Part shown: piece by piece, positions 2,367 through 26,050 of the stretch
Layout of the letters: every line of letters starts with the position of its first letter
Position numbering within the stretch: the stretch's first letter is position 1
Assembly (NCBI GenBank): GCA_965198225.1
Contig: CBDAOY010000005.1
Coordinates: forward strand, 736,001 to 800,000
Direction of reading: 5' to 3'
DNA length: 64,000 nucleotides
Origin: Terriglobia bacterium
Lineage (GTDB): Bacteria; Acidobacteriota; Terriglobia; 20CM-2-55-15
The notes under the pieces: generated by a model
The model's input: only the letters and a program-made list of their open reading frames with translations
The model's database searches: none
What the model was told of the DNA's origin: nothing
Position numbers and translations under genes: made by a program

Positions 2367-3602
2367 CTAGCGTTCTATTTCCACCAGGCCTATGCGGTTC
2401 GAACTGGTTTGGTGAATCAAAAGGTTGCCCGCCTCCGTCACCCACATATTCCGGACGATGCCGACGCCGGAGGGAATGGCCCAGCTCTGGAACTTTTCCG
2501 TCTTCGGGTCGAAACGCACCAGTGCGTCAGGCCTCATCCCCGACTCGTTGTACCAGATGATGTCGTCCACGACGCTGAAAGCATAGGGATGAGAATCCGG
2601 CCCACTGGGTGAAGGCCACTCCTTGATGTCACCCGTCTCCGGGTTGAGCCTTCCGATGCGGCCTTGGGTGGAGTTCCCGTACCAGACCATGCCGTCGCTG
2701 GTGAGCCCGAGCCGGCGAATGCGGGACTCTTCGTTCGGCACCTCGTAGTAGCGGACACGCATTGTCTCCGGATTGAGGGCTCCGATCTTGTTGATGCCGT
2801 TGTAGGCAACCCAGACCGTGCCGTCGGACGCCACCTGCATACCGTACGGCCTCGGCTCGGTTTGGATCTCGGTGACCTCGCCGGTCTCAGGGCTCAGGCG
2901 GCCGAGCATATGGGCGCCCTGTGCGGTGAAGTAGAGCCTGCCGTTCGGGTGGAAGACCGCAGTGTGGGGATCCCGGGCCTCAGTCTCGTATTCGGTGACC
3001 ACGCCGGTTTTGGGATCAAGCTTGCCCATGGTCGCGTTGCTGTTTCCCGTATACCAGATGTTTCCGTCCGCGTCTGGAACGATGCTGTGCGGTCTTGAGC
3101 TGGGCGGCAGCCGAAACTCCTCCATCTCGCCCGTCTTTGGATCGAGCCGCCCCGCGAGGCTGGCCCACATCCCGGTCCACCAGATGGAGCCGTCCGGCGC
3201 CTCTATCGGGTCGCGGGACCGCTGGCCGAGAGTCGGAACCATCCACTCCGTGATCTCGATCTCCGTGTCACCCGAAACCAGCGTGGGGCGCCGCCCCGGC
3301 CGCTCGGGGTAATGCTCGGTCAGGTACCGGGCCACGGTGTGAGCCTGGGCGTCCGGAAGTGCGACCATCGAAGCGACAAGTGCCTCCCAGTCGTCCTGGG
3401 AATATCCTGATGACCTGACGATCTGGTTGAGTCCATGGCACGTGGTGCAGTGGTTCTGGACGAGTTCCTGACCAGAGCCCGCCGGCAACTCGATGGGCTG
3501 GCCACGGCCGCGCCCTCTGCCGCGCTGGGCATTCCCTGGCGCCCCAAGGGCCAGGCCAAGGAGTATCACCACCATCAGGATTGAGAATGCTTTGCCGCGC
3601 AT
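2367..3602 (-). CDS. Exported cytochrome c domain + Vgb (virginiamycin B lyase-like) beta-propeller
   Basis: Signal peptide, one CTTCH heme motif, then repeated PH/PY...DGxIWYT...GRLDPKTG blades. Confidence 0.75.
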   Translation of the reverse strand: MRGKAFSILMVVILLGLALGAPGNAQRGRGRGRGQPIELPAGSGQELVQNHCTTCHGLNQIVRSSGYSQDDWEALVASMVALPDAQAHTVARYLTEHYPERPGRRPTLVSGDTEIEITEWMVPTLGQRSRDPIEAPDGSIWWTGMWASLAGRLDPKTGEMEEFRLPPSSRPHSIVPDADGNIWYTGNSNATMGKLDPKTGVVTEYETEARDPHTAVFHPNGRLYFTAQGAHMLGRLSPETGEVTEIQTEPRPYGMQVASDGTVWVAYNGINKIGALNPETMRVRYYEVPNEESRIRRLGLTSDGMVWYGNSTQGRIGRLNPETGDIKEWPSPSGPDSHPYAFSVVDDIIWYNESGMRPDALVRFDPKTEKFQSWAIPSGVGIVRNMWVTEAGNLLIHQTSSNRIGLVEIER

Positions 3603-3901
3603 GGGTTTCTACCTCGAAGTTAAGAGATAACGATCCGGCCCGCGTCGCCATTGTGAGAGTCCGTTACGGATGAGCCCGGCCGGGTGATGCAAACTTGATT
3701 CATCTTGGAAGCCGCTAGAATAGGCCGATACTATACTTCACTTTCCGCAGGAGCAAGGTTCTTGCCCGACACGTTCCCCCCGGGGACTTGCCCGGCGCTG
3801 GTGCCGGGTGGAAGTCCGTACAGCCCGCAACAGGGTCGGGTTAGGGTGCCCGCACTAGTTGTAGATGCTGTCGTCATTTTGCATGGTAAAATGACGACGA
3901 T

Positions 3902-5062
3902 ATGTCAAATGAGAATTACGCGCGCCTGATCGCTCCGCCGAAAAGAAGTTTCTTCCTGTTTGGCCTCCGCGGAGTCGGCAAGAGCACCTGGACCCTCGAG
4001 CGGTTCCCAGATGCTTACTACGTCGATTTGCTCGACGAGTCTCGTTATCAGAACCTGTTGGCCAACCCGGGGCTGCTTGCCCTGGAGCTTTCAGACCTGG
4101 CGCCCAAAAGGGTCGTCGTCCTGGACGAGGTCCAGCGCGTGCCAGCATTGCTGAACGAAGTTCACCGGGCGATCGAAGCGAGCCGCCGCAGATTTGTGCT
4201 GGTCGGTTCCAGCGCGCGCCGTCTCAAGACGGCAGGGACCAATCTTCTGGCCGGGCGGGCAACCCTCCACACGATGTATCCGCTCCTCCCGGCCGAACTC
4301 GGCGACGACTTCGACCTGGAACGCGGCCTGCGTTTCGGCAGTGTTCCCATCGTCTGGCAGGCCGATGATCCGGGCGCGACCCTGGAGGCCTACGTCCAGC
4401 TGTACGTGCGAGAGGAAATCAAAGGCGAGGCTTTGGTCCGAAACCTTCCCGCCTTCCTTCGTTTCATGCCGGTGGCGGCGCTCCTTCACGGTCAGGTCAT
4501 CAACATATCGGGCCTCGCTCGCGACGCGGCCGCCGCCCGCACCACGGTGGAGGGCTACCTCGGTATCCTGCAGGACACGCTGCTGGCAACTCTGTTGCCC
4601 GCGTTCGAACCGAAGCTGCGAGTCCGGGAACGCCGGCACCCGAAGCTCTACTGGACCGATTCGGGCATCGTACGGGCCGCGAAGCGTCATACCGGTCCGG
4701 TCGGAGCCGAGGAACGGGGGCCGCTGCTCGAAGGATGGATCCTTGCAGTGCTGCGAGCGCACAACGAGTTGTCGGAGGTGTTTGAGGAGGTGTCCTACTG
4801 GGCACCGGCACAGGCGCGCCGGACGGAGGTCGATTTCCTCCTCCGTCGGGGAAACGAACATCTGGCTATTGAAGTCAAGGCGCAGTCCCGCTTCTCAAAA
4901 TCCCAGCTTACAGGATTGCGAGCGATCGCCGATCTGGGGCGCACCGTGCGACGTGTGCTGATCTACCTGGGTACGGAAAGGCTTCGCACCGATGACGGAA
5001 TCGAGGTATGGCCGCTGCAATCGTTCCTCGATGCGGTTGCGGGGGACCGGCTTTGGCCCTAG
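3902..5062 (+). CDS. AAA_14 ATPase with DUF4143 C-terminal domain
   Basis: Walker A GLRGVGKS, Walker B VLDEVQ, GSSA, LAGRA, PKLYWTDSG, EVDFLL...AIEVK. Confidence 0.85.
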   Translation: MSNENYARLIAPPKRSFFLFGLRGVGKSTWTLERFPDAYYVDLLDESRYQNLLANPGLLALELSDLAPKRVVVLDEVQRVPALLNEVHRAIEASRRRFVLVGSSARRLKTAGTNLLAGRATLHTMYPLLPAELGDDFDLERGLRFGSVPIVWQADDPGATLEAYVQLYVREEIKGEALVRNLPAFLRFMPVAALLHGQVINISGLARDAAAARTTVEGYLGILQDTLLATLLPAFEPKLRVRERRHPKLYWTDSGIVRAAKRHTGPVGAEERGPLLEGWILAVLRAHNELSEVFEEVSYWAPAQARRTEVDFLLRRGNEHLAIEVKAQSRFSKSQLTGLRAIADLGRTVRRVLIYLGTERLRTDDGIEVWPLQSFLDAVAGDRLWP

Positions 5063-5281
5063 CGTGTCGCGGGGGACATGGCGGACGAAGAGTTTCCGGA
5101 GTCTGGTCGCTTTGGTATGATCCGTGCTTCCGACGAGACTTAAAAAAGCTCGGTCAAACGGAAGCCTGCCAGTGGTTGGATCGTTTAAACCGTAGGCTTT
5201 TCCGCACCCGGTCAGCTCGGGACGGCCGTAATGGGTTGAGAATTCTCCGTCTCCGAGCCGGTGATGAGAAAACCTCACCAC

Positions 5282-7294
5282 CTACCATTCATACCGCAAG
5301 CCCAACCGGAAAATCCTCGGATTCAGGATCTGCGTTGCGCGGCCGAACCGCGGCACCGTGTTGCCGTTGCGATCCCGGACCAGGTTGCTGAAGGTTTCAA
5401 CTCCCAGGACGGTGTTGGCGTTGAAGATGTTGAACAGATCGAACATCGCCTGAACACTCTGGCGATCGCCGATCGCGAAAGTCTTCTCAAACCGGATGTT
5501 GGTCAGGTGGACGCTCGGGCGATGGTACGTTCCCTCGGGTTCCATGATGATGACCTGGCTGCCCTGCGCGAGACCCTGGGCGCTCGTGCAGTCTCCGTTC
5601 GTCACCGTCCGACAACGGGGATCGTCCGCTTCCCGTCGGAGCAGGTCCGGAGTGAACCGCACGCGCCGGTTGTACTCGACGCCTTTCTGGGCGTTGTAGG
5701 TACCCGATACCGAAATCCCTTTCGGCAGTTCGTATTGACCCAGTAGCTTGAACGACCACAGGTCTATGTGACGATTCCCGCCGTAGACCAGGTTGTTGGG
5801 GTCGGGTCCGACATCGAACGGATCGTTGCGTTTCGTCCAGTCGACACCCGTGATCATCATCCAACCGTTGCTCATCCGTTTTCGTGCACCGAACTCGATC
5901 GTCGAGAAGTGGCCGCCGCGGTCGAGATTCGTTACGAGGTTCTCCCCCGGGCGTGGTGATCGGGTTCGTTCGTAGATCGTGACCAATCGATCGTCGCCCG
6001 AGCCGACCGCTCCATCAGGCCCGCGATCCACCGCCTGAACGGGCCGGTAGGTCAGCGTGGGGTGGGCCTGGTCGATGCGGTCCCACAGGTTGTGTTGGAT
6101 TTTTCGGACAAAGTTCGCGTTCACCGCGAAATCCTGGAACAGTTCGTGTTCGATTCCTACCGTGTACTCGTCGGTGTACTGGTTCGTCAGATTCGGATCC
6201 ACGTCAGCGGGGTTCGGAGTGCCGGTGATCCGCTCGATGTTGGAGTTCGCGATCAGTTCGTGCGTGATCGGGAGGGTTCCATCCCAGGTGTACTGTGTCG
6301 TCACCGGGAGAGAATTCGGATTGCCGAGTTGCGCCACCCTGAAGCTCGTGATGTCGCTGAACCGGCCATAGCTGGCCTTCAGAGCTGTTCTCGTGTCGCC
6401 GAACACGTCGTAGACGAGGCTGATACGCGGCACGAGATCGTTGAACGTCGCGTAGTGGGTCCTGGGGTAGGTGATCTTTGTGGCGAAAGGGCCGGTTCCA
6501 GGATTCCCCTGTTCAGGTGCGAAGTTGGTGTAACGGTCGAATCGGAGCCCGAGGTTCAACGTGAGGCGGTTGTTCAGCTGCCACTTGTCCTGCACAAAAA
6601 AGTAGTTGTGGTACAGGGAGTTGTGGGACTTGAACGGTGTGGTTGTCGTCTGGAAAAAGTCGGGTACACCGCCTCTGGAAAAGAGCCAGATAGCGCCGAG
6701 TGTTCCCGGCGATGCGGGCGCCTCGTTCCAGGTGAACCGGGAGTCTTCCCACTGGAGGGCGTACCCCACCTTGACGTCGTGGTCGCCGGTGAAGTAACTC
6801 CAGTTCACGTTCCATTGCCAGCGGCGCTCCTGAGTGTGAAACGGGAATTGCAGCCCCCCCCGCTGGGCACCCGTGAACAGATCCCGCGTCGGCGTCTGGC
6901 TGACGTGAGACTTGGCGGAAACATTGACCCCAGTCGTGTTGGCGGAGACATCCAGAGTTGATCTACCGCTCAACATGGCCATCCACTGGAACTTGTACTT
7001 CCAGGCCCAGGCGTCCTGTTTTCTGGTCGACTCGAGGGTCCTGTTTTTTGCGCCCGGTCCGCTGCCACCGACGAACGGCTGGAACTTCCGGGTCGCCCCG
7101 CCGCTGAAAACCAGCGAATGGTCCGGGCTGATCTGGTGGTTGAGCTTCAGGGTGTAGTTCTGGAGCCGGGTCGTGAAGGTCCCTCCCGGCGTGAGGTCGT
7201 TCTGCAGGACCTGGGTCTGTAGAGCCGAGTACTGATCTCGAACCGAGACGAACCACCACAACTTGTCCCGGACGATGGGGCCTCCGGCATTGCC
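5282..7294 (-). pseudogene. 3' part of a TonB-dependent receptor (3' exon of intron A1); 5' half absent
   Basis: Begins GNAGGPIVRDKLWWF immediately after the intron 3' end. Contains QDKWQLNNRLTLNLGLRFD, DLFNIFNAN and C-terminal PRIFRLGLRYEW. Confidence 0.8.
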
Positions 7295-7454
7295 GTAGAG
7301 TCGACGACTGGCGCGGTGGCGGTAGGCAAAGGGGGTAGCTGTTGCCGGTGGCTTTCGCCGATTCCGGTGCCTCACTCCTCGCCGTGGCTTCGTTTCCAGT
7401 CGCCGCTCATCGAACCGGACATGCGGATTTCCCGCATCCGGCTCTCGGACGAGA

Positions 7455-8795
7455 TCATGCCTTCGCCCACGGAAAGCTCGCCGTACGCGGCGCAAGATGC
7501 GTGAGCCCGTAATCGGACCAGAGCCGCTCGGACGGGAAGCGCACGTGTTTCCCGGTCCGCACCTTGTGCTTACGGCAGAGCCACTGGCGCGGCCGCCGGG
7601 TCGCGTGTTGATCAATCGCCTTGTAGGCCGGGCGGACCTGTCCCAGGATGAAATAGTTCGCCCAACCGATCAGCAACCGGTTGAGGCGTCCCACTACGAC
7701 TCCCGACGGCAGGAGCACGTGGCGCGGCGCGGTCAACTCGCTCACACGACGGCAGATGCTCTGGACGCTTTCCCGGCTCGGATGTGTGCCTATGTAGGCG
7801 GCACCCGTACCCGGCCGGTAGTTGCAACCGATCCGGTAGCCGAGGAACGTCATCGATTCCTCCGGCACCCGGCAGCAGCGGGTCTTCTCAACGTTCATCG
7901 CCAACTTCAGACGTTTTATCAGGGCTTCGACCGCCGCTAGCATCACCGCTGCCGGCGCGCGACCGAGAACCGCGAAGTCATCCGCGTAGTTGACGATTTC
8001 CGCCTTGAAGTGCCGGGCGTAGCCCAGCACCTTCCAGCCCAGAATGAAGCGCCGCATGTAGATGTTGCTGAACAGCGGCGAGATCGGAGACCCTTGCGGG
8101 GTCCCCTTCCGCTCGTGACGCGCCCGGTTCGTGCGGCGGCGACCGCCGCGCCCGTCGTCCTCTTCCACCGCCATCTCCAGCCACGCCTTGACCCAGCCCA
8201 ACAGCCGCCCGTCGCTCACACGCCGGGCGATGGACTTCATCAGGTCCGCGTGCGGAATCTGGCCGAAGTAGTCCGACAGGTCGGCGTCCACCACCTCCCG
8301 GTGGCCCGTCGTCAGCAGCCGATGCACGCGCCTGACTGCGTCATGCGCGTCTCGGCCCGGCCGGTACGCATACTGCTCCGGTTGCAGGTCGGCTTCGAAG
8401 ATCGGCGATAACACCAGCATCGCCGCCGTCTGCACCACCCGATCCCGGAGACACGGAATGCCCAACGGCCGGAACTTCCCTCGTTGCTTCTTCGGGATGA
8501 GAACCTGCCGAACCGCATGCGGCCGATAGGTCCCTTCCTTCAGGTCCCGCGCCAGTGCTCCCAGCCACCGGTCCACCCCGAACGCATCGATGTCCGCGAC
8601 CGTCTCGCCGTCCACCCCGGCCGCGCCGCCGTTGCGGCGCACGGCCTGCCAGGCGACTGCGAGCACGTCGTCGCGCCACACCTTGTCGCTCAGAGAGTAG
8701 AACCGGAAGCCCAGAGCTTCCTTCGCTTTCGCATGTAGCGCCGTCTGGAGTCGCTGAACTCTCTCCGAGGCTGTTAGGCTCTCGCCAGTCCTCAT
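7455..8795 (-). CDS. ltrA: Group II intron reverse transcriptase/maturase (no endonuclease domain)
   Basis: RPLGIPCLRDRVVQ, YAYRPGR, DADLSDYF, GTPQGSPISPLFSNIYM, YADD, GWANYF. Start placed at MRTGESL; the track's longer start runs into IS DNA. Confidence 0.92.
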   Translation of the reverse strand: MRTGESLTASERVQRLQTALHAKAKEALGFRFYSLSDKVWRDDVLAVAWQAVRRNGGAAGVDGETVADIDAFGVDRWLGALARDLKEGTYRPHAVRQVLIPKKQRGKFRPLGIPCLRDRVVQTAAMLVLSPIFEADLQPEQYAYRPGRDAHDAVRRVHRLLTTGHREVVDADLSDYFGQIPHADLMKSIARRVSDGRLLGWVKAWLEMAVEEDDGRGGRRRTNRARHERKGTPQGSPISPLFSNIYMRRFILGWKVLGYARHFKAEIVNYADDFAVLGRAPAAVMLAAVEALIKRLKLAMNVEKTRCCRVPEESMTFLGYRIGCNYRPGTGAAYIGTHPSRESVQSICRRVSELTAPRHVLLPSGVVVGRLNRLLIGWANYFILGQVRPAYKAIDQHATRRPRQWLCRKHKVRTGKHVRFPSERLWSDYGLTHLAPRTASFPWAKA

Positions 8796-8972
8796 GTCCC
8801 TTCCTCCGTCATGCGCTGCTCTCGAACTGAGGTCCCTTCCCTCCACCGGCATTACCTGATGGGATGGACTCCTCCTTGATGACTGAGTCGGCATCGTAGT
8901 GCCAAAGTCATTGTGAAGCCTCGCGATGGTGCGGGCTAAACACGAGGACGTGTAAACAAGAAGGAGTCCGAG

Positions 8973-10007
8973 ATGAAGAGTAAAACGATCGCAGTGGATC
9001 TGGCAAAGAATGTTTTCGAGATTGGGATTTCCGACCGCCCCGGGCAGATGACGAAGACATACCGTTTAAGCCGGGGAAAGTTCTTGTCGTTTTTTGCGAA
9101 TCAGGAGCTGGCGACGGTCGTGATGGAAGCCTGCAGTGCCGCCCATCACTGGGGACGAGAGATCCAGAAACTGGGGCACACAGTGGTACTGATTTCACCG
9201 CAGTATGTCCGGCCCTACGTACCGAGGAGTAAGACGGATCGGGCGGATGTAAAAGGGTTGCTGGAGGCCCACCGGAATGCCGATATTCGGGCGGTACCCA
9301 TTAAGACGGTGGCGCAACAGCAACTCACCGCCCTGCACCGCATCCGGTCGACCTGGATGCGGACCCGGACGGCGCGCATCAACATGGTGCGGGGGCTGCT
9401 GGGAGAGTTTGGGCTCGTGCTGCCGACGGGAGCCCGGCGGCTGGTGCCCGGAGTCATGGGGTTGATCGAAGATGCGGATGTTGAGATCCCCATGACCGTA
9501 CGCGTCATGTTCTCGGAAGTGTGCACCGAAATCCGCGAGCTGGAGGCACGCATTCAATCGGTGGAGCGGGAGTTGGAAGCCCTGGCCCGTCAGATGCCCG
9601 AGGTGGCCCGTCTGCGCTCGATCCCTGGAATCGGGCTGTTGACTTCCACGGCGATGGTAGGTTTTGTCGGTGACCCCCGACGGTTTCGATCCTGTCGCCA
9701 CTTTGCCAGTTATCTGGGACTCACCCCGCGTGAGCGTTCGAGCGGAAACCGGCGTCGGCTGGGAGCGATCAGCAAACAAGGCAACGTCTACCTGCGGATG
9801 CTGCTCATACACGGTGGCCGCACTCTGCTATGGAGTGCGCATCGAAAAGGGGCGCAACCTTCGGCTCTGCAGAAATGGGGTCTCCGTCTCCACACACTCC
9901 GCGGGCACAACACGGCCACGGTTGCTTTAGCCAACAAACTGGCCCGCACGGTTTGGGCCGTCTGGACACAGGACACGGCGTACGAGGCTGACCGACGGGC
10001 GGCCTGA
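8973..10007 (+). CDS. IS110 DEDD recombinase/transposase
   Basis: IAVDLAKNVF, VVMEAC, KTDRADV, SIPGIG, YLGLTPRERSSG, VALANKLAR. Confidence 0.95.
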   Translation: MKSKTIAVDLAKNVFEIGISDRPGQMTKTYRLSRGKFLSFFANQELATVVMEACSAAHHWGREIQKLGHTVVLISPQYVRPYVPRSKTDRADVKGLLEAHRNADIRAVPIKTVAQQQLTALHRIRSTWMRTRTARINMVRGLLGEFGLVLPTGARRLVPGVMGLIEDADVEIPMTVRVMFSEVCTEIRELEARIQSVERELEALARQMPEVARLRSIPGIGLLTSTAMVGFVGDPRRFRSCRHFASYLGLTPRERSSGNRRRLGAISKQGNVYLRMLLIHGGRTLLWSAHRKGAQPSALQKWGLRLHTLRGHNTATVALANKLARTVWAVWTQDTAYEADRRAA

Positions 10008-10063
10008 CACCATGACTGTAGGAACATCCTTTCAGTAGACTGCGACGACGTTCGAGTTGATGA

Positions 10064-10207
10064 CGTACCGGTCAGACCGGCGCGGGGAAACGCCGGAGAA
10101 GCCGTGGCCCCTGGAGGCCGTTTACCCGGTTGGCACCCCGCGCGCGAATTTCATCATGGCCCGGAACTCAAACGTTCCATTCGAGAGGCCGAAGATACGG
10201 ATGCAGT
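10064..10207 (+). ncRNA. Putative bridge RNA of IS1111 #1 (target- and donor-binding loops)
   Basis: Two internal loops, each built around a TGGCC...GGCCG inner stem. Guides GAAGCCG (10098-10104) and TTACCCG (10122-10128) match the target; CATCA (10152-10156) and AGATA (10193-10197) match the element ends. Boundaries approximate. Confidence 0.75.
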
Positions 10208-10648
10208 CGATCTGTCACTCAACTCGAAAATCAAATATCAGGATGCTGAAAAGAATCTTCGGGAAAAGGATATGGGACAGCTGCGCCTACTTGACAGGAG
10301 GAGTCCAGATACGGCTTTCTTGGTACTGCGGACCTCTCCGCCACCCTGTCGGCCCAACCTGACCCTCGCGGGCTGTCGGTTGGCGCGTGCCACGCCACCG
10401 GCAGGGCTTCCCGTGTTGCGTCCAATCCCCTCTTCCATACATGCCACCGCCCAATACCCCGGCGGAACCAGTCGGTGCTCGCGTCGCTCGCTTCCCGACC
10501 GCTGGCAGCCTTCCCCGTTTCAACGGCGGGTCGGCTTCCGCATTGTGCGTTTCGATGGAGTGGACGCCCCCGCTCCCCGGCGGCAGAATGGGCCGGGTCA
10601 GCAGAACGCACAAGGGGTGCGTTCAGAACACGAGAGAGGGAGGGATAC

Positions 10649-11695
10649 ATGGGCAAGGTGATCACCATCATCGGCATCGACATTTCAAAGAGGTACTTCC
10701 AACTGCATGGAGCCACGGCAAGCGGTGAGCCTGTGCTGCGCAGGCAGCTCACGCGCCCGAAGCTACTCGAGTTCCTCGCCAAGCAGCCTGTCTGCCGGGT
10801 CGTGATGGAAGTGTGCGGCAGCGCCCATCATTGGGGGCGGATGATCCAGGAGATCGGCCACGAGGTCCGCCTGATTCCCCCGATGTATGTGAAGCCGTAC
10901 GTCAAGAGGCAGAAGAATGACGCCAACGACGCGGGAGCGATCGTCGAGGCGGCCCAGCGGCCGACGATGCGGTTCGTGGCCGTGAAGACCGAGGAGGAGC
11001 AGGCACGATCGGTGGTGTTCCGGGCCCGGGCACTGCTGGTGCGCCAGCGGACACAGACGATCAACGCGCTGCGGGGTCATCTCGCGGAGTTTGGACTCGT
11101 CGCTCCGCTTGGGACCCACAACGTCGGGAGGCTGGAGGAGGTGTTCGCGGAGCGTGAAGAGTGTTTCCCGGCGCTGGTGCCTCCCGCCATACGCCGCCTC
11201 ATCGAGCGGACCCACGATCTGGATGCGGAGATCGATGAGCTGGACCGGGAGATCCGTCGCATCGTGAGGGAAGATGAGGCGCTCGGGCGCCTGATGACGA
11301 TTCCAGGGGTGGGAGAGCTCACGGCAATGGCGGTGCACGCGTTCGCGCCACCGATGGAGAGCTTCCGTAATGGACGTGACTTTGCGGCATGGGTCGGGAT
11401 CACGCCGCGTGAATCCTCGACGGGTGGCCGCCAACGGCTGGGGGGGATCACAAAGATGGGACAGCGCGACATCCGGAGGCTCCTGTACCTGGGAGCGACG
11501 GCGGTCATCTCGAGTGCCATCCGGCGGAGGGAGGTCACCGATCCCTGGCTTGGCCGGATGCTGGACGAAAAGCCGAGGAAGGTGGTTGCGGTGGCTCTGG
11601 CCAACAGGATGGCACGCATCATCTGGGCCATGACGGTGAAGGAGGAGAGCTACAGGGCACGGGGAATGACAAAGGCCGTTGCGCCTGCAGCGTAG
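10649..11695 (+). CDS. IS110 DEDD recombinase/transposase
   Basis: IGIDISKRYFQLHG, VVMEVC, QKNDANDA, TIPGVG, WVGITPRESSTGG, VALANRMAR. RBS GGAGGG before ATG 10649. Confidence 0.95.
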   Translation: MGKVITIIGIDISKRYFQLHGATASGEPVLRRQLTRPKLLEFLAKQPVCRVVMEVCGSAHHWGRMIQEIGHEVRLIPPMYVKPYVKRQKNDANDAGAIVEAAQRPTMRFVAVKTEEEQARSVVFRARALLVRQRTQTINALRGHLAEFGLVAPLGTHNVGRLEEVFAEREECFPALVPPAIRRLIERTHDLDAEIDELDREIRRIVREDEALGRLMTIPGVGELTAMAVHAFAPPMESFRNGRDFAAWVGITPRESSTGGRQRLGGITKMGQRDIRRLLYLGATAVISSAIRRREVTDPWLGRMLDEKPRKVVAVALANRMARIIWAMTVKEESYRARGMTKAVAPAA

Positions 11696-11854
11696 GGTTG
11701 CGAGTCAGATCAGTGGAGCGAAGAAGGGTCGGCGAGATCAGAAACGCGGAGAAGAGAGAGGAAATCGTCCGGCTGGCGGCCTGGGCGGATGGACACGGGC
11801 CACGGAGGTTCCAACTGGAGAGTGCAAGCAGGACGTCGGACAAGGTAGGGGCAA

Positions 11855-12000
11855 ACGGTCGACAAGACGGGATCGGAAAACCCAGTAGGCCTCGAAGGGC
11901 CATCGAGCCCGTCGTTTCGATTTGGATCCGATCTCACGAACACCATACGGGCCCGCGGCCAGCAAGTGCCGCATCAAGAGGCCGCACATACGACCGTACC
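11855..12000 (+). ncRNA. Putative bridge RNA of IS1111 #2
   Basis: AGGCCTCGAA (11887-11896) - hairpin GGGC..GCCC - CGTTTCGA (11913-11920) match both strands of the target. CCATACG (11943-11949) and CACATACGA (11985-11993) match the circle junction. Boundaries approximate. Confidence 0.8.
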
Positions 12001-12038
12001 TGACCTGAATGCCACCGATCCTCGGTTCGAAGTCAGGC

Positions 12039-12064
12039 TTGCCAACCAGGGGGGCGTCCACATA
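12039..12064 (+). promoter_or_regulatory. -35 half of a circle-junction promoter of IS1111 #2
   Basis: TTGCCA at 12039-12044. Joining the right end to the left end would create TACGAT 18 nt downstream. Confidence 0.55.
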
Positions 12065-12253
12065 CGAGGCCTGCTCGGCGTTTACTCGCGTTGTGGCCTG
12101 TGTGGTCGCTGAGCCGCCCGAGGCGGCCCTTTGTCATCGGAGTGCTTCAGACGATGTTGTTACCTCCACCATCCGCTCCGATTGCTACCGACTGGAGCGA
12201 CAGTTGCCGGGCGGGATTCGCACCCGCTGAGGATTGGCGCCTTCTCACGGCGC

Positions 12254-12708
12254 GGCTTGAGCCCTCGGCTCCTCATGAAGCTGTAGAGGGTCGTACGGGA
12301 CACGCCCGTGAGCTTGGCGATGGCGGTCTTGGAAACCCCCAGCTTGAGGAAGCGCCGGATGTCGTCCTCCTTGCCGTTGAGCCGTGAGACGCCCAGCGAG
12401 CCTTTCGGGCGCCCGAGCTTCCGGCCCGAGGATCTGGCCTTGGCGAGGGCGTCGAGGATGGCAACGATCTGACCCAGCGACCGACCAAGCCGGGAGAGTT
12501 CGCTGACGACCAAACGGTCGCCGCGCTGGAGAACGTTCATCAGCTCGTCGAGCCGTCGGCGCTTTTCGGAAGCCTATCCAGAGGCGGTCGCCTCGATGAA
12601 ATCGTCGATGCGGAAGTCGTGTTTGCGTGCGTACTCGAGGATGGCGAGGCGCTGGCTGCGCACGTCCTGCTGCGCGGTCGAGACCCTCAAATAGGCAACG
12701 GTTTTCAC
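12254..12708 (-). pseudogene. Serine resolvase/invertase pseudogene
   Basis: VAYLRVSTAQQD, in-frame TAG near 12575, GDRLVVSELSRLGRS, an internal deletion, then LGRPKG and HTH AIAKLTGVSRTTLY fused to the intron 5' end. Confidence 0.8.
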
Positions 12709-23704: not shown

Positions 23705-24168
23705 TATCAGCCAGTCTGACTTCCGACAGGCCTTCGGGTCTTCCTCGCGTTGTTGGCTTGTCCAACCCTACAAGCTCCGCTTGAACCTGACGGATCTCCC
23801 TTGTTCCCATGAAATCCTTGGTTGCATGCCGGCGGTACGAACCCCGGAAGGTTGCCATTGCGTGCCCTGCGATTCCGCCTTCCCCGGCGGTACGAACCCC
23901 GGAAGCACCCCAGGGCACGCCATTGCGTGCCCTGCGATTCCGCCTTCCCCCAGCGACAGGGTCGGCTACTTCAACCACGTTCGATCAACCACGTTCGATT
24001 TCGGGGCTATCTTTCCGTTCACTGGTGTTCCGGCCTACTCCCTCCCTGTCTACGCTTCGCAGTGTCCGTCACCGACCACCACGCAAGACTCGGTACGTGG
24101 CTGCCGGCTAGGCTCTGCCACGGCCGCCATCTCAGGCGACTGGATCTCATGCGCTTGCAAGGCGCAAC

Positions 24169-26050
24169 GCTCATCGAACCGGACATGCAGATTTCCCGCA
24201 TCCGGCTCTCGGACGAGATCATGCCTTCGCCCACGGAAAGCTCGCCGTACGCGGCGCAAGATGCGTGAGCCCGTAATCGGACCAGAGCCGCTCGACCGGG
24301 AAGCGCACGTGTTTCCCGGTCCGCACCTTGTGCTTACGGCAGAGCCACTGGCGCAGCCGCCGAGTTGCGTGCCGGTCAATCGCCTCGTAGGCCGGGCTGA
24401 CCTGTCCCAGGGTGAAGTAGTTCGCCCAACCGGTCAGCAACCGGTTGAGGCGTCCCACTACGACCTCCGGCGGCAGGAGCGCGTGACGCGGCGTGGTCAA
24501 CTCGCTCACACGACGGCAGATGCTCTGGACGCTTTCCCGGCTCGGACGTGTGCCTATGTAGGCGGCACCCGTGTCCGGCCGGTAGTTGCAACCAATCCGG
24601 TAGCCGAGGAACGTCATCGATTCCTCCGGCACCCGGCAGCAGCGGGTCTTCTCAACGTTCATCGCCAACTTCAGACGTTTTATCAGGGCTTCGACCGCCG
24701 CTAGCATTACCGCTGCCGGCGCGCGACCGAGAACCGCGAAGTCATCCGCGTAGTTGACGATTTCCGCCTTGAAGTGCCGGGCGTAGCCCAGCACCTTCCA
24801 GCCCAGAATGAAGCGCCGCATGTAGATGTTGCTGAACAGCGGCGAGATCGGAGACCCTTGCGGGGTCCCCTTCCGCTCGTGACGCGCCCGGTTCGTGCGG
24901 CGGCGACCGCCGCGCCCGTCGTCCTCTTCCACCGCCATCTCCAGCCACGCCTTGACCCAGCCCAACAGCCGCCCGTCGCTCACGCGCCGGGCGATGGACT
25001 TCATCAGGTCCGCGTGCGGAATCTGGCCGAAGTAGTCCGACAGGTCGGCGTCCACCACCTCCCGGTGGCCCGTCCTCAGCAGCCGATGCACGCGCCTGAT
25101 TGCGTCATGCGCGTCTCGGCCCGGCCGGTACGCATACTGCTCCGGTTGCAGGTCGGCTTCGAAGATCGGCGATAACACCAGCATCGCCGCCGTCTGCACC
25201 ACCCGATCCCGGAGACACGGAATGCCCAACGGCCGGAACTTCCCTCGTTGCTTCTTCGGGATGAGAACCTGCCGAACCGCATGCGGCCGATAGGTCCCTT
25301 CCTTCAGGTCCCGCGCCAGTGCTCCCAGCCACCGGTCTACCCCAAGCGCCTCGATGTCTCCGACCGTCTCGCCGTCCACCCCGGCCGCGCCGCCGTTGCG
25401 GCGCACGGCCTGCCAGGCGACTGCGAGCACGTCGTCGCGCCACACCTTGTCGCTCAGAGAGTAGAACCGGAAGCCCAGAGCTTCCTTCGCTTTCGCATGT
25501 AGCGCCGTCTGGAGTCGCTGAACTCTCTCCGAGGCTGTTAGGCTCTCGCCAGTCCTCATGTCCCTTCCTCCGTCATGCGCTGCTCTCGAACTGAGGTCCC
25601 TTCCCTCCACCGGCATTACCCGGCTTCCCTGGTACTGCGGACCTCTCCGCCACCCTGTCGGCCCAACCTGACCCTCGCGGGCTGTCGGTTGGCGCATGCC
25701 ACGCCACCGGCAGGGCTTCCCGTGTTGCGTCCATCCCCCCCTTCCACACGTGCCGCCGCTACTACCCCGGCGGAACCGGTCGGTGCTCGCGTCGCTCGCT
25801 TCCCGACCGCTGGCAGCCTTCCCCGTATTCCGGGCGGATCGGCTTCCGCATCGCTTCGTTACGAGGCCTGCGCAGCGTTCACATCGTTGCGGCCCGCGTG
25901 GTCGCTGAACCGCCCAGGGCGGCCCTTTGTCATCGGAGTGCTTCAGCCGATGTCGTTACCTCCATCGTCCGCTCCGACTGCTACCGGCTGGAGCGACAGT
26001 TGCCGGGCGGGGTTCGCACCCGCTGGGGAATGGCGCCTTTCACGGCGCAC
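24169..26050 (-). mobile_element. Group II intron copy A2 (domains I-V; domain VI displaced by intron B)
   Basis: Canonical 5' GTGCGCCGTG at 26050; domain V GAGCCGGATGCGGGAAATCTGCATGTCCGGTTC; near-identical RT to A1. Confidence 0.9.
24219..25559 (-). CDS. ltrA: Group II intron reverse transcriptase/maturase
   Basis: Same motifs as 7455-8795 (YADD, GTPQG, GWANYF), with few substitutions. Confidence 0.92.
   Translation of the reverse strand: MRTGESLTASERVQRLQTALHAKAKEALGFRFYSLSDKVWRDDVLAVAWQAVRRNGGAAGVDGETVGDIEALGVDRWLGALARDLKEGTYRPHAVRQVLIPKKQRGKFRPLGIPCLRDRVVQTAAMLVLSPIFEADLQPEQYAYRPGRDAHDAIRRVHRLLRTGHREVVDADLSDYFGQIPHADLMKSIARRVSDGRLLGWVKAWLEMAVEEDDGRGGRRRTNRARHERKGTPQGSPISPLFSNIYMRRFILGWKVLGYARHFKAEIVNYADDFAVLGRAPAAVMLAAVEALIKRLKLAMNVEKTRCCRVPEESMTFLGYRIGCNYRPDTGAAYIGTRPSRESVQSICRRVSELTTPRHALLPPEVVVGRLNRLLTGWANYFTLGQVSPAYEAIDRHATRRLRQWLCRKHKVRTGKHVRFPVERLWSDYGLTHLAPRTASFPWAKA

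Follow-up and report, generated by a model that had tools for sequence, protein, structure and literature searches.

Two insertion sequences within a group II intron

We analyzed a window of 64,000 nucleotides (nt) from the genome of a Terriglobia bacterium (6.4 Mb in nine contigs); the window is C5:736001-800000 (GenBank contig CBDAOY010000005.1), and positions given without a contig are window positions. Within it, one copy of a group II intron, A1, is interrupted by two insertion sequences (ISs) of the IS1111 type, called IS1 and IS2 here, each of which carries short guide-like segments resembling its own insertion site. A1 spans 7295-12253 on the minus strand, as delimited by Rfam ends, homology to a second copy (A2), and comparison of intron 5′ ends. 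On this strand, the domain I model RF02003 matches 12086-12229 and the domain V/VI model RF00029 matches 7295-7446. The reverse transcriptase/maturase of A1, with RVT_1 and GIIM domains, lies at 7455-8795 (minus strand) in a frame open for 446 amino acids (aa). The likely start of the intron protein is MRTGESL, with GGAGG in front of it; a relative on a metagenome contig, locus L134, has a stop codon upstream of MRTGESL. A2 lies at 24149-26050 (minus strand) and has both IS sites empty, as judged by blastn against A1, junction reading, and Rfam. The features that mark these elements as group II introns are the matches to RF02003, RF00029, and, partially, RF02005, the RVT_1 and GIIM domains, and the 5′ GUGCG found in A2 and in the relatives L058 and L134.

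Comparison of A1 with A2 by blastn gives three collinear blocks, 7404-8856 with 24168-25620 (97.7%), 10312-10555 with 25621-25864 (91%), and 12063-12253 with 25860-26048 (88%), and A1 is therefore A2 plus two insertions. The intron segment left between the two ISs, comprising late domain I and beyond, is 241 bp long (10312-10552, minus strand) and 91% identical to A2 25621-25864. In A2 the IS1 site lies between 25620 and 25621, within 25616-25626, and the IS2 site lies between 25861 and 25862, within 25857-25869, with one mismatch to the IS2 guide.

IS1 (8857-10311, plus strand, 1455 bp) was delimited with the empty A2 site and a contig join, and IS2 (10553-12064, plus strand, 1512 bp) with empty sites and a contig join. 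Contigs of four public sequencing runs join 8856 to 10312, skipping 1455 bp, and 10552 to 12065, skipping 1512 bp with three ambiguous bases; these are the empty forms of the IS1 and IS2 sites, respectively. The empty sites in A2 and in other copies in the genome equal the left flank plus the right flank exactly, with no target duplication and a single orientation. The original prediction for this locus had placed two IS1111 elements 241 bp apart inside A1, at 8857-12064, and had proposed A2 as the empty-site control. Its coordinates are exact, running from the first base of IS1 to the last base of IS2, and A2 fixed the junctions to the base.

Both elements encode a DEDD transposase containing PF01548 (DEDD_Tnp_IS110) and PF02371 (Transposase_20). 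The IS1 protein has 344 aa (8973-10007, plus strand) and the motif GLTPRERSSG; the IS2 protein has 348 aa (10649-11695, plus strand) and the motif GITPRESSTG. The IS2 open reading frame (ORF) was called at 10475-11695, and its true start at 10649 was read from the translation. The two transposases share 37% identity, and are thus as clearly different as had been claimed. The best identities in a plasmid collection were below 60% for the IS2 transposase and at most 43.6% for that of IS1. Perfect 12-bp subterminal inverted repeats are present in IS1 (TGGACTCCTCCT, 8865-8876, plus strand; partner 10296-10307) and in IS2 (GTGGACGCCCCC, 10560-10571, plus strand; partner 12050-12061). The terminal extensions of IS2 are 7 bp on the left (CGATGGA) and 3 bp on the right (ATA). 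In IS1 the perfect repeat leaves extensions of 8 and 4 bp; allowing one mismatch lengthens the repeat to 13 bp and shortens the extensions to 7 and 3 bp. The noncoding DNA that follows the transposase gene amounts to 304 nt in IS1 and 369 nt in IS2, versus 116 and 96 nt upstream.

Published IS1111 elements have transposases of about 330-350 aa with the motif GL-P----S(t)G, subterminal inverted repeats of 11-13 bp, and extensions of 7 or 6 bp on the left and 3 bp on the right (PMC11187229; the defining features are likewise given in PMC11208160). The motif is present in both transposases, with I replacing L in IS2, and by these sequence-level features both elements belong to the IS1111 group of the IS110 family. 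The genome contains four identical copies of IS1 and one 74% relative at C4:92181-93570, in which the right end has diverged and neither guide nor target is readable. IS2 is present as two full copies, 99.5% identical to each other, and one 5′-truncated copy.

Guide segments and predicted RNAs

We located a pair of guide-like segments in the 3′ noncoding region of each element, as the original prediction had proposed. For IS1, the top-strand guide GAGAAGCCG (10096-10104, plus strand) matches CGGCTTCTC of the right flank as a reverse complement and covaries with this flank in relatives, and the bottom-strand guide TTACCCGG (TTACC plus CGG; 10122-10129, plus strand) has the same sense as the left flank plus core. 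Jointly the two spell TTACC^CGGCTTCTC, a guide pair that can also be written TTACC^CGG-CTTCTC, where the caret marks the insertion point. The IS1 target is CATTACC^CGGCTT, and the site in A1 reads CATTACC^CGGCTTTCT. For IS2, the top-strand guide TAGGCCTCGAA (11886-11896, plus strand) is the reverse complement of TTCGAGGCCT(A) and lies on the 5′ strand of the internal loop in the consensus fold. The bottom-strand guide CGTTTCGA (CGTTT plus CGA; 11913-11920, plus strand), 17 nt downstream, is identical to the top strand of the site. These guides jointly spell GCGTTT^CGAGGCCT, which is the target; the pair is also written CGTTT^CGA-GGCCT. In both elements the top-strand guide lies 5′ of the bottom-strand guide. 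This order agrees with the layout published for IS1111 seekRNAs, in which a top-strand-complementary segment is followed by a bottom-strand-complementary one and the two overlap in the target (PMC11187229). Bridge RNAs have been predicted in the right end of 93% of IS1111 elements (PMC11208160).

When the IS1 and IS2 RNAs are folded individually, an outer stem and a small inner hairpin bracket an internal loop, each strand of which carries one of the two guides. An RNAalifold consensus of 16 IS2-family RNAs likewise has an outer stem and an inner hairpin enclosing the guides, followed by a second stem-loop; 4 of its 27 pairs are compensatory. The second stem-loop of the IS2 RNA (11940-11993, plus strand) has CACATACGA beside the predicted stem. 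This word is invariant in 16/16 aligned IS2 relatives and corresponds to the right end joined to the initial CGA of the left end, as in a circle junction, so that the stem-loop is a candidate donor-binding loop. Candidate donor-binding segments of IS1, kept in its relatives, lie at 10149-10200 (plus strand), where TTTCATCATGG is complementary to the left end TGATG and AGATACGG equals the right end plus CGG. In these candidate donor loops the 5′ donor strand matches weakly.

All elements of a family begin with the same 3 nt (CGA for the IS2 family, TGA for the IS1 family), whereas the right flank begins with varying ones (CGA, CGT, CGG, or CGC in the IS2 family; CGG, CAG, or GGG in the IS1 family). 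Empty IS2 sites hold a single CGA. The corresponding positions compared in the window were 10553-10555 with 12065-12067 and 8857-8859 with 10312-10314. These alignments suggest that the left junction retains the donor core and the right junction the target core, and that the two cores may differ.

Covariation of guides and flanks

Covariation with the flanks in relatives is a stronger test of these segments than comparison with random sites. For the IS2 family, relatives were collected by scanning genome contigs (68 loci) and metagenome contigs (30 loci); these 98 loci and the window, 99 sequences, contained 56 left-end matches and 24 complete elements, which gave 20 unique element/site pairs. 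Own guides matched own flanks at 198/260 positions, compared to 96.4±10.1 after permutation. IS1 relatives were taken from 40 and from 34 related genomes, and 38 complete elements gave 16 unique pairs, with 179/208 own matches compared to 108±13.8 permuted. In neither family did any of 10000 permutations reach the real value. The covariation check that the original prediction had called for thus came out in its favor, although one IS2-family element, L075, fits its own site poorly (1/7 and 3/6).

The noncoding regions of the IS1 relatives align on a conserved scaffold with exactly two variable blocks, both of which track the flanks. In the type found in G005 and G021, the reverse-complemented top-strand guide is AAGGACTTGT and the bottom-strand guide is TTTAT or TTTAA, with GATTTAT on the left of the element and CAGGACTTGA on the right. 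In the G003 type the corresponding guides are GGACATGTGT and CCATC, and the flanks are ACCATC and CGGACATGTG. As a control for chance, we also scored the real noncoding regions against 5000 random 30-mers of the genome with a loose statistic; the real IS2 score was reached by 1/5000.

Target specificity of IS2

The IS2 site corresponds to intron nucleotides ~182-194 and aligns to positions 116-124 of RF02005 (GCccCGAAA), one strand of a long-range helix in that domain I model, which bears out the predicted placement in domain I. The motif TTTCGAGGCCTGCTC is kept in intron relatives of just 71-80% identity, including the introns of G002 and G003. The 13-mer CGTTTCGAGGCCT occurs uninterrupted three times in the genome, always in an A1-type intron copy (C5:610057, C6:7757, and C6:838993). 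All six perfect IS2 targets of the genome, three filled and three empty, are in intron copies; A2-type copies are one base off the target and are all empty. Because the guide word is confined to intron copies in this genome, IS2 is in effect an intron-specific parasite, and its description as an intron-specialized guide variant aimed at a conserved domain I motif is well supported.

The same guide pair and site recur elsewhere. Among 40 relatives and 400 same-phylum genomes, we found no IS2 relative closer than 41% aa or 68% nt identity, while metagenome-assembled genomes (MAGs) of Longimicrobiales carry relatives at 85-88% aa. At L058 and L059, from one Longimicrobiales MAG, and at L134, an IS that is 82% identical to IS2 at the nucleotide level and shares both guides is inserted between ...CCGTTT(CGA) and CGAGGCCTGCTCGGCGTTCACTCGC, the homologous site of a related intron. 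RF02003 matches adjoin the IS at all three loci. The L134 intron is full length; it has a domain V/VI match, and its reverse transcriptase shares 70% identity with the A2 protein. The intron of L058 and L059 is a unit of ~560 nt lacking an ORF. The bottom-strand guide of the L058 type is one base longer and fits its own intron variant, CCGTTT.

In both families, most relatives have different guides and targets. Close IS2 relatives with different guides sit in the left end of a related IS (L057, L068, and L087) or at an unrelated site (L063). With Rfam at the gathering threshold, an intron was found in only L058 and L059 among 20 IS2-family loci (0/18 of the others) and in 0/20 IS1-family loci from other genomes. 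A tblastn search with the A2 intron protein against the 68 genome loci and 30 IS1-family loci found none near relatives outside this genome, and among the 30 metagenome loci it found an intron protein in L134 only; the other 48 genome and 29 metagenome loci were checked for introns by blastn and tblastn alone. Since 0/18 further IS2-family and 0/20 IS1-family loci searched with Rfam hold an intron, intron targeting is a property of these guide variants and not of either IS family.

Several relatives showed further rearrangements. In L057 (OZ242253.1, a Longimicrobiales MAG; 2879-5813), three levels of IS nesting are present: an 88% relative of IS2, with matching guides, interrupts a related IS 31 nt from the left terminus of the latter and has its own 3′ noncoding region split by a third related IS. 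A second copy of the intron-borne IS2 relative, at L059 4115-5604, holds a 1.5-kb insertion in its 3′ part. For L066, L070, L071, L074, and L105 (Paracoccaceae MAG) and L077, L078, and L080 (Alphaproteobacteria MAG), the flanks of the IS2-family element are repeated over at least 25 nt. These relatives seem to be aimed at multicopy sequence; Rfam searches of L066, L077, and L080 found no intron.

Target specificity of IS1

Identical or near-identical IS1 elements occupy nine sites in three genomes (four identical copies here, ~99.9% identical copies in G015, and near-identical copies in G440). At all nine sites the sequence is (C/A)TTACC^CGG, after which CTTCTC is matched in part. Empty occurrences of the 11-mer TTACCCGGCTT number seven in the genome, of which five are in intron copies. 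The perfect 14-mer TTACCCGGCTTCTC matches only twice in 34 genomes of the family, both times at the homologous intron position in two genomes of the same genus; a reversed control pattern matches four times, all elsewhere. In addition, a contig of high depth from an RNA library is an intron variant bearing the 14-mer. The IS1 guide is thus cognate to an intron variant, yet the element is more common in an IS5-like transposase gene (PF13737 and PF01609), and intron targeting by IS1 is only partly supported.

In the intron, the IS1 site comprises nucleotides ~425-435 and precedes the likely start codon for the intron protein by ~60 nt. It lies within a small hairpin whose stem changes are compensatory between A2 and L134, as read by eye. 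The domain III label given by the original prediction was not confirmed; the site could not be assigned to domain III or domain IV. We considered whether IS1 interrupts the intron ORF and rejected this, as the long A2 start is not conserved (L134 has its stop upstream) and the likely start is ~60 nt past the IS1 site.

We compared empty and occupied forms of the IS5-like site (G000 C5:838646 and C4:355363, loci L001 and L002; L038 and L162 in G015; L163 and L173 in G440). Five empty copies in this genome read CCTTGCC-CGGGCTCC. Occupied sites read CCTTACC-IS1-CGGGCTCC, GCATTACC-IS1-CGGCTCC, or GCATTACC-IS1-CGGGCTCC, so that the bases beside IS1 are closer to the guide and the intron site than the empty copies are. 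Either the guide picked variant copies or the flanking bases were converted upon insertion. In G440, an ALIL pseudoknot (RF01497, an IS3-type frameshift element; L179 1055-1170) lies 330 nt from a truncated copy of IS1, and another IS therefore probably cut that copy.

Intron copies and their occupancy

The genome holds at least nine intron copies or fragments. Six A1-type copies are identical over the 5′-terminal 150 nt; five of these adjoin different exon sequences, and the sixth is A1 itself, truncated by 2 nt. The 5′ end of A1 (12251-12253) lacks the first two bases of GUGCG, and its upstream flank is unlike those of other A1-type copies. Because those two bases are absent, A1 is a 5′-truncated copy that would probably be dead even with neither IS inserted. 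Of the A1-type copies, two are empty, and there is one each with IS1 only, IS2 only, both ISs, and a truncated IS2, a pattern that fits repeated guided insertion, precise excision, or recombination between copies.

A2-type copies part from A1 right after domain V (~24168; window 23889-24178). Beyond this point they run into another intron type, which has a full RF02005 match at 23889-24132 and separate copies at C4:98565 and C5:64139. The fusion recurs at several loci, indicating mosaic or nested introns. An A2-type fragment at G000 C6:408308-410066 (L160), split by 1.76 kb at a point 10 nt from the IS1 site, belongs to a rearranged cluster of intron pieces. This 1758-bp insertion was considered as a third IS and rejected, as it contains a reverse-transcriptase fragment and no IS110-type gene. 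In two RNA libraries, runs X15 and X16, contigs of the intron parts (8700-8856, 10312-10552, and 12065-12300) have summed depths of 10^3-10^4, compared to 0-25 for contigs of the IS bodies, although such depths gauge abundance poorly. Many intron sequence variants are present, and the intron family thus appears to be abundant and diverse in these communities.

Proposed mechanism and alternative explanations

We consider it likely that IS1 and IS2 are active guided IS1111 elements, IS2 being in effect intron specific and IS1 being intron cognate but also an inserter at near matches. In the proposed mechanism, each IS would transcribe a seekRNA/bridge RNA with a target-binding internal loop from its own 3′ noncoding region. 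The 5′ strand of the loop would pair with the top strand of the right half-site, and its 3′ strand with the bottom strand of the left half-site plus the 3-nt core. The DEDD transposase would then recombine the presumably circular element into the site with no target duplication. The guide pair of IS2 spells a motif that is conserved in domain I of a single group II intron family. That of IS1 perfectly matches the hairpin upstream of the intron ORF in some variants, with near matches also hit, notably in the IS5-like transposase gene. Pointers to activity are the identical and near-identical IS1 copies in this genome, G015, and G440 and the presence of IS1-only, IS2-only, doubly occupied, and empty forms among intron copies 100% identical over 150 nt. 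We infer from the published seekRNA/bridge RNA mechanism, taken to be the one at work here, that this RNA is made, that the transposase binds it, and that a circular intermediate forms.

Several observations weigh against this reading. Rfam covariance models gave no match up to E=5 within 8800-12100, and thus membership of either IS in a curated bridge-RNA family could not be shown. Contigs of the RNA libraries cover the IS bodies thinly, and such contigs are blind to small RNA. The real IS1 score was reached by 33/5000 random 30-mers, making this match moderately strong only. The IS1 family has only ~3 guide types, so that its pairs are not independent and the permutation test overstates independence. 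Of the nine IS1 sites, two are in the intron, both in this genome and perhaps descended from a single event, five are in the IS5-like gene, and two are elsewhere; the occupied sites match the guide at 11-12/14 positions, and none is perfect. The IS copies of L058/L059 and L134 are 98% identical and may come from closely related organisms. Between assemblies, the IS is 82% and the intron 76-80% identical, and one old insertion diverging together with the intron is possible. Lastly, the two full IS2 copies differ at 8/1512 positions and their intron flanks at 0/430, where ~2.3 differences would be expected, a result compatible both with independent insertion and with copying of the intron-plus-IS composite. 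The proposal that both elements are programmed to target the intron stands for IS2, given its six perfect targets, the recurrence in other assemblies, and the conserved domain I motif, and stands in part for IS1, given the two intron sites and the perfect 14-mers at the homologous position. The original prediction was to be abandoned if other copies lay mostly in non-intron targets that did not match the guides; most IS1 copies are outside introns, but because all IS1 sites match the guides, this is not what we observe.

A somewhat unlikely explanation is that neither element is specialized. The ISs would recognize words of 11-14 nt, insertions in dispensable multicopy selfish DNA would survive while others were purged, and the intron would be an incidental near match. 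The predominance of the IS5-like gene over the intron among IS1 sites and the lack of any perfect match at occupied sites agree with this, as does the retargeting of IS2 relatives of 85-88% aa identity, either into another IS, at its left end, or to unrelated sequence; the guides of L057, L068, L087, and L063 imply that retargeting is frequent and that mobile DNA is a common target in general. Points against incidental matching are the confinement of the perfect IS2 targets to the intron, the recurrence of the same guide pair and site in other assemblies, where both IS and intron have diverged, and the finding that the sole perfect IS1 14-mers in 34 genomes are at the homologous intron site while the reversed control falls elsewhere four times. 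Slightly less probable, in our judgment, is a single guided insertion of each IS followed by spread through homologous recombination among intron copies or as an intron-plus-IS composite. The intron copies are indeed mosaic, the IS1-only copy being A1-type at its 5′ end yet A2-type at its 3′ junction, the flanks of occupied and empty A1-type copies are identical, and IS and intron have diverged by similar amounts between assemblies. On the other hand, IS1 has clearly inserted independently at other loci bearing the same word, and empty A1-type copies are found at distinct loci. Spread as a composite is also disfavored by general knowledge of group II introns, since retrohoming of a ribozyme with an extra 1.5-3 kb in domain I is improbable.

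That the guide-like matches are due to chance, or are nonfunctional pieces of flank carried into the IS, is extremely improbable. The IS1 match is short (6 + 8 nt), and its score on the loose statistic leaves some room for chance; nevertheless, the blocks occupy fixed positions of a conserved scaffold and change with the flanks in differently targeted relatives, and their order and layout agree with experimentally defined seekRNAs (PMC11187229). The covariation brings this explanation close to refutation. Guided insertion by IS1 and IS2 could also be taken further than we have taken it, to a picture in which two unrelated IS1111 lineages are dedicated hyperparasites of one intron family. Their guides would track ribozyme motifs that the intron cannot easily mutate, and the ISs would travel with the intron between genomes and even phyla, in an arms race that would act as a natural brake on intron spread. 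Travel between phyla is suggested by the closest IS2 relatives being in Longimicrobiales MAGs, with none above 68% nt in 400 genomes of its own phylum. We regard this extended picture as speculative and, taken as a whole, unlikely.

Returning to active guided elements as the preferred explanation, an additional 1.5 kb within domain I or ahead of the ORF would probably inactivate splicing and mobility of the intron, and multicopy selfish DNA may be favored as a target since insertions there would cost the host nothing. Disabling of the intron, riding of the ISs on the intron, and convergence of two lineages on a safe multicopy landing pad are all reasonable inferences.

Relation to known systems and implications

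The closest known systems are ISEc11, ISKpn4, ISPst6, and ISPa11 (Siddiquee et al. 2024, PMC11187229). These elements likewise have a DEDD transposase of 330-350 aa with the S/T-G motif, 11-13-bp subterminal repeats, asymmetric extensions, and a long 3′ noncoding region, their top-strand match precedes the bottom-strand match and overlaps it in the target, and their relatives show natural retargeting. Their targets, however, are a short linear site, attC sites, and REP sequences, and IS1 and IS2 are known from sequence alone. The bridge RNA of IS621 and the IS110 group (Durrant et al. 2024, PMC11208160) similarly has target- and donor-binding loops, each reading both strands around a short core. 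It differs in that IS621 has its RNA in the left end and uses CT as the core, whereas in IS1 and IS2 the RNA would lie in the right end, the core appears to be 3 nt, and the donor loop is a candidate. In addition, the element-borne core of IS1 and IS2 (CGA or TGA) need not equal the target core (CGN or CGG).

IS1111 members that target other mobile elements or repeated recombination sites also insert in one orientation and cause no duplication, and a target inside a mobile element is therefore not new in kind. IS1 and IS2 differ from them in that their target is the DNA of a catalytic RNA (intron domain I and the region upstream of the ORF) and in that two unrelated IS lineages occupy one host element. 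Group IIC-attC introns, which home into mobile DNA (PMC3001079), provide another case of selfish elements nested by sequence-specific targeting, although with the direction reversed, the intron here being the victim and the IS the invader. Full-text literature searches yielded no description of a group II intron as the target of an IS110/IS1111 element, with the limits that the supplementary target tables of PMC11187229 and PMC11208160 could hold such a case and that ISfinder was outside the search. The word "intron" is absent from the main text of PMC11187229 and from PMC11208160, and a 2026 COMPASS preprint mentions introns and IS110 only separately.

Bridge and seekRNA elements were described in 2024, and their natural targets reveal what programmable guides were selected to recognize. 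Guides that follow a motif conserved in domain I of a group II intron would add a target class beside REP sequences, attC sites, and transposon ends. The case is strengthened by the recurrence with a diverged IS and a diverged intron and by a second, unrelated IS aimed at the same intron family. The two natural sets of guide, target, and donor, together with many retargeted relatives, could be used to work out guide rules for IS1111 elements, for example, for a 3-nt core with nonidentical donor and target copies, and are relevant to researchers on mobile elements and bridge recombinases. Overall, this locus would provide a clean example of selfish elements parasitizing each other via RNA-guided recognition.

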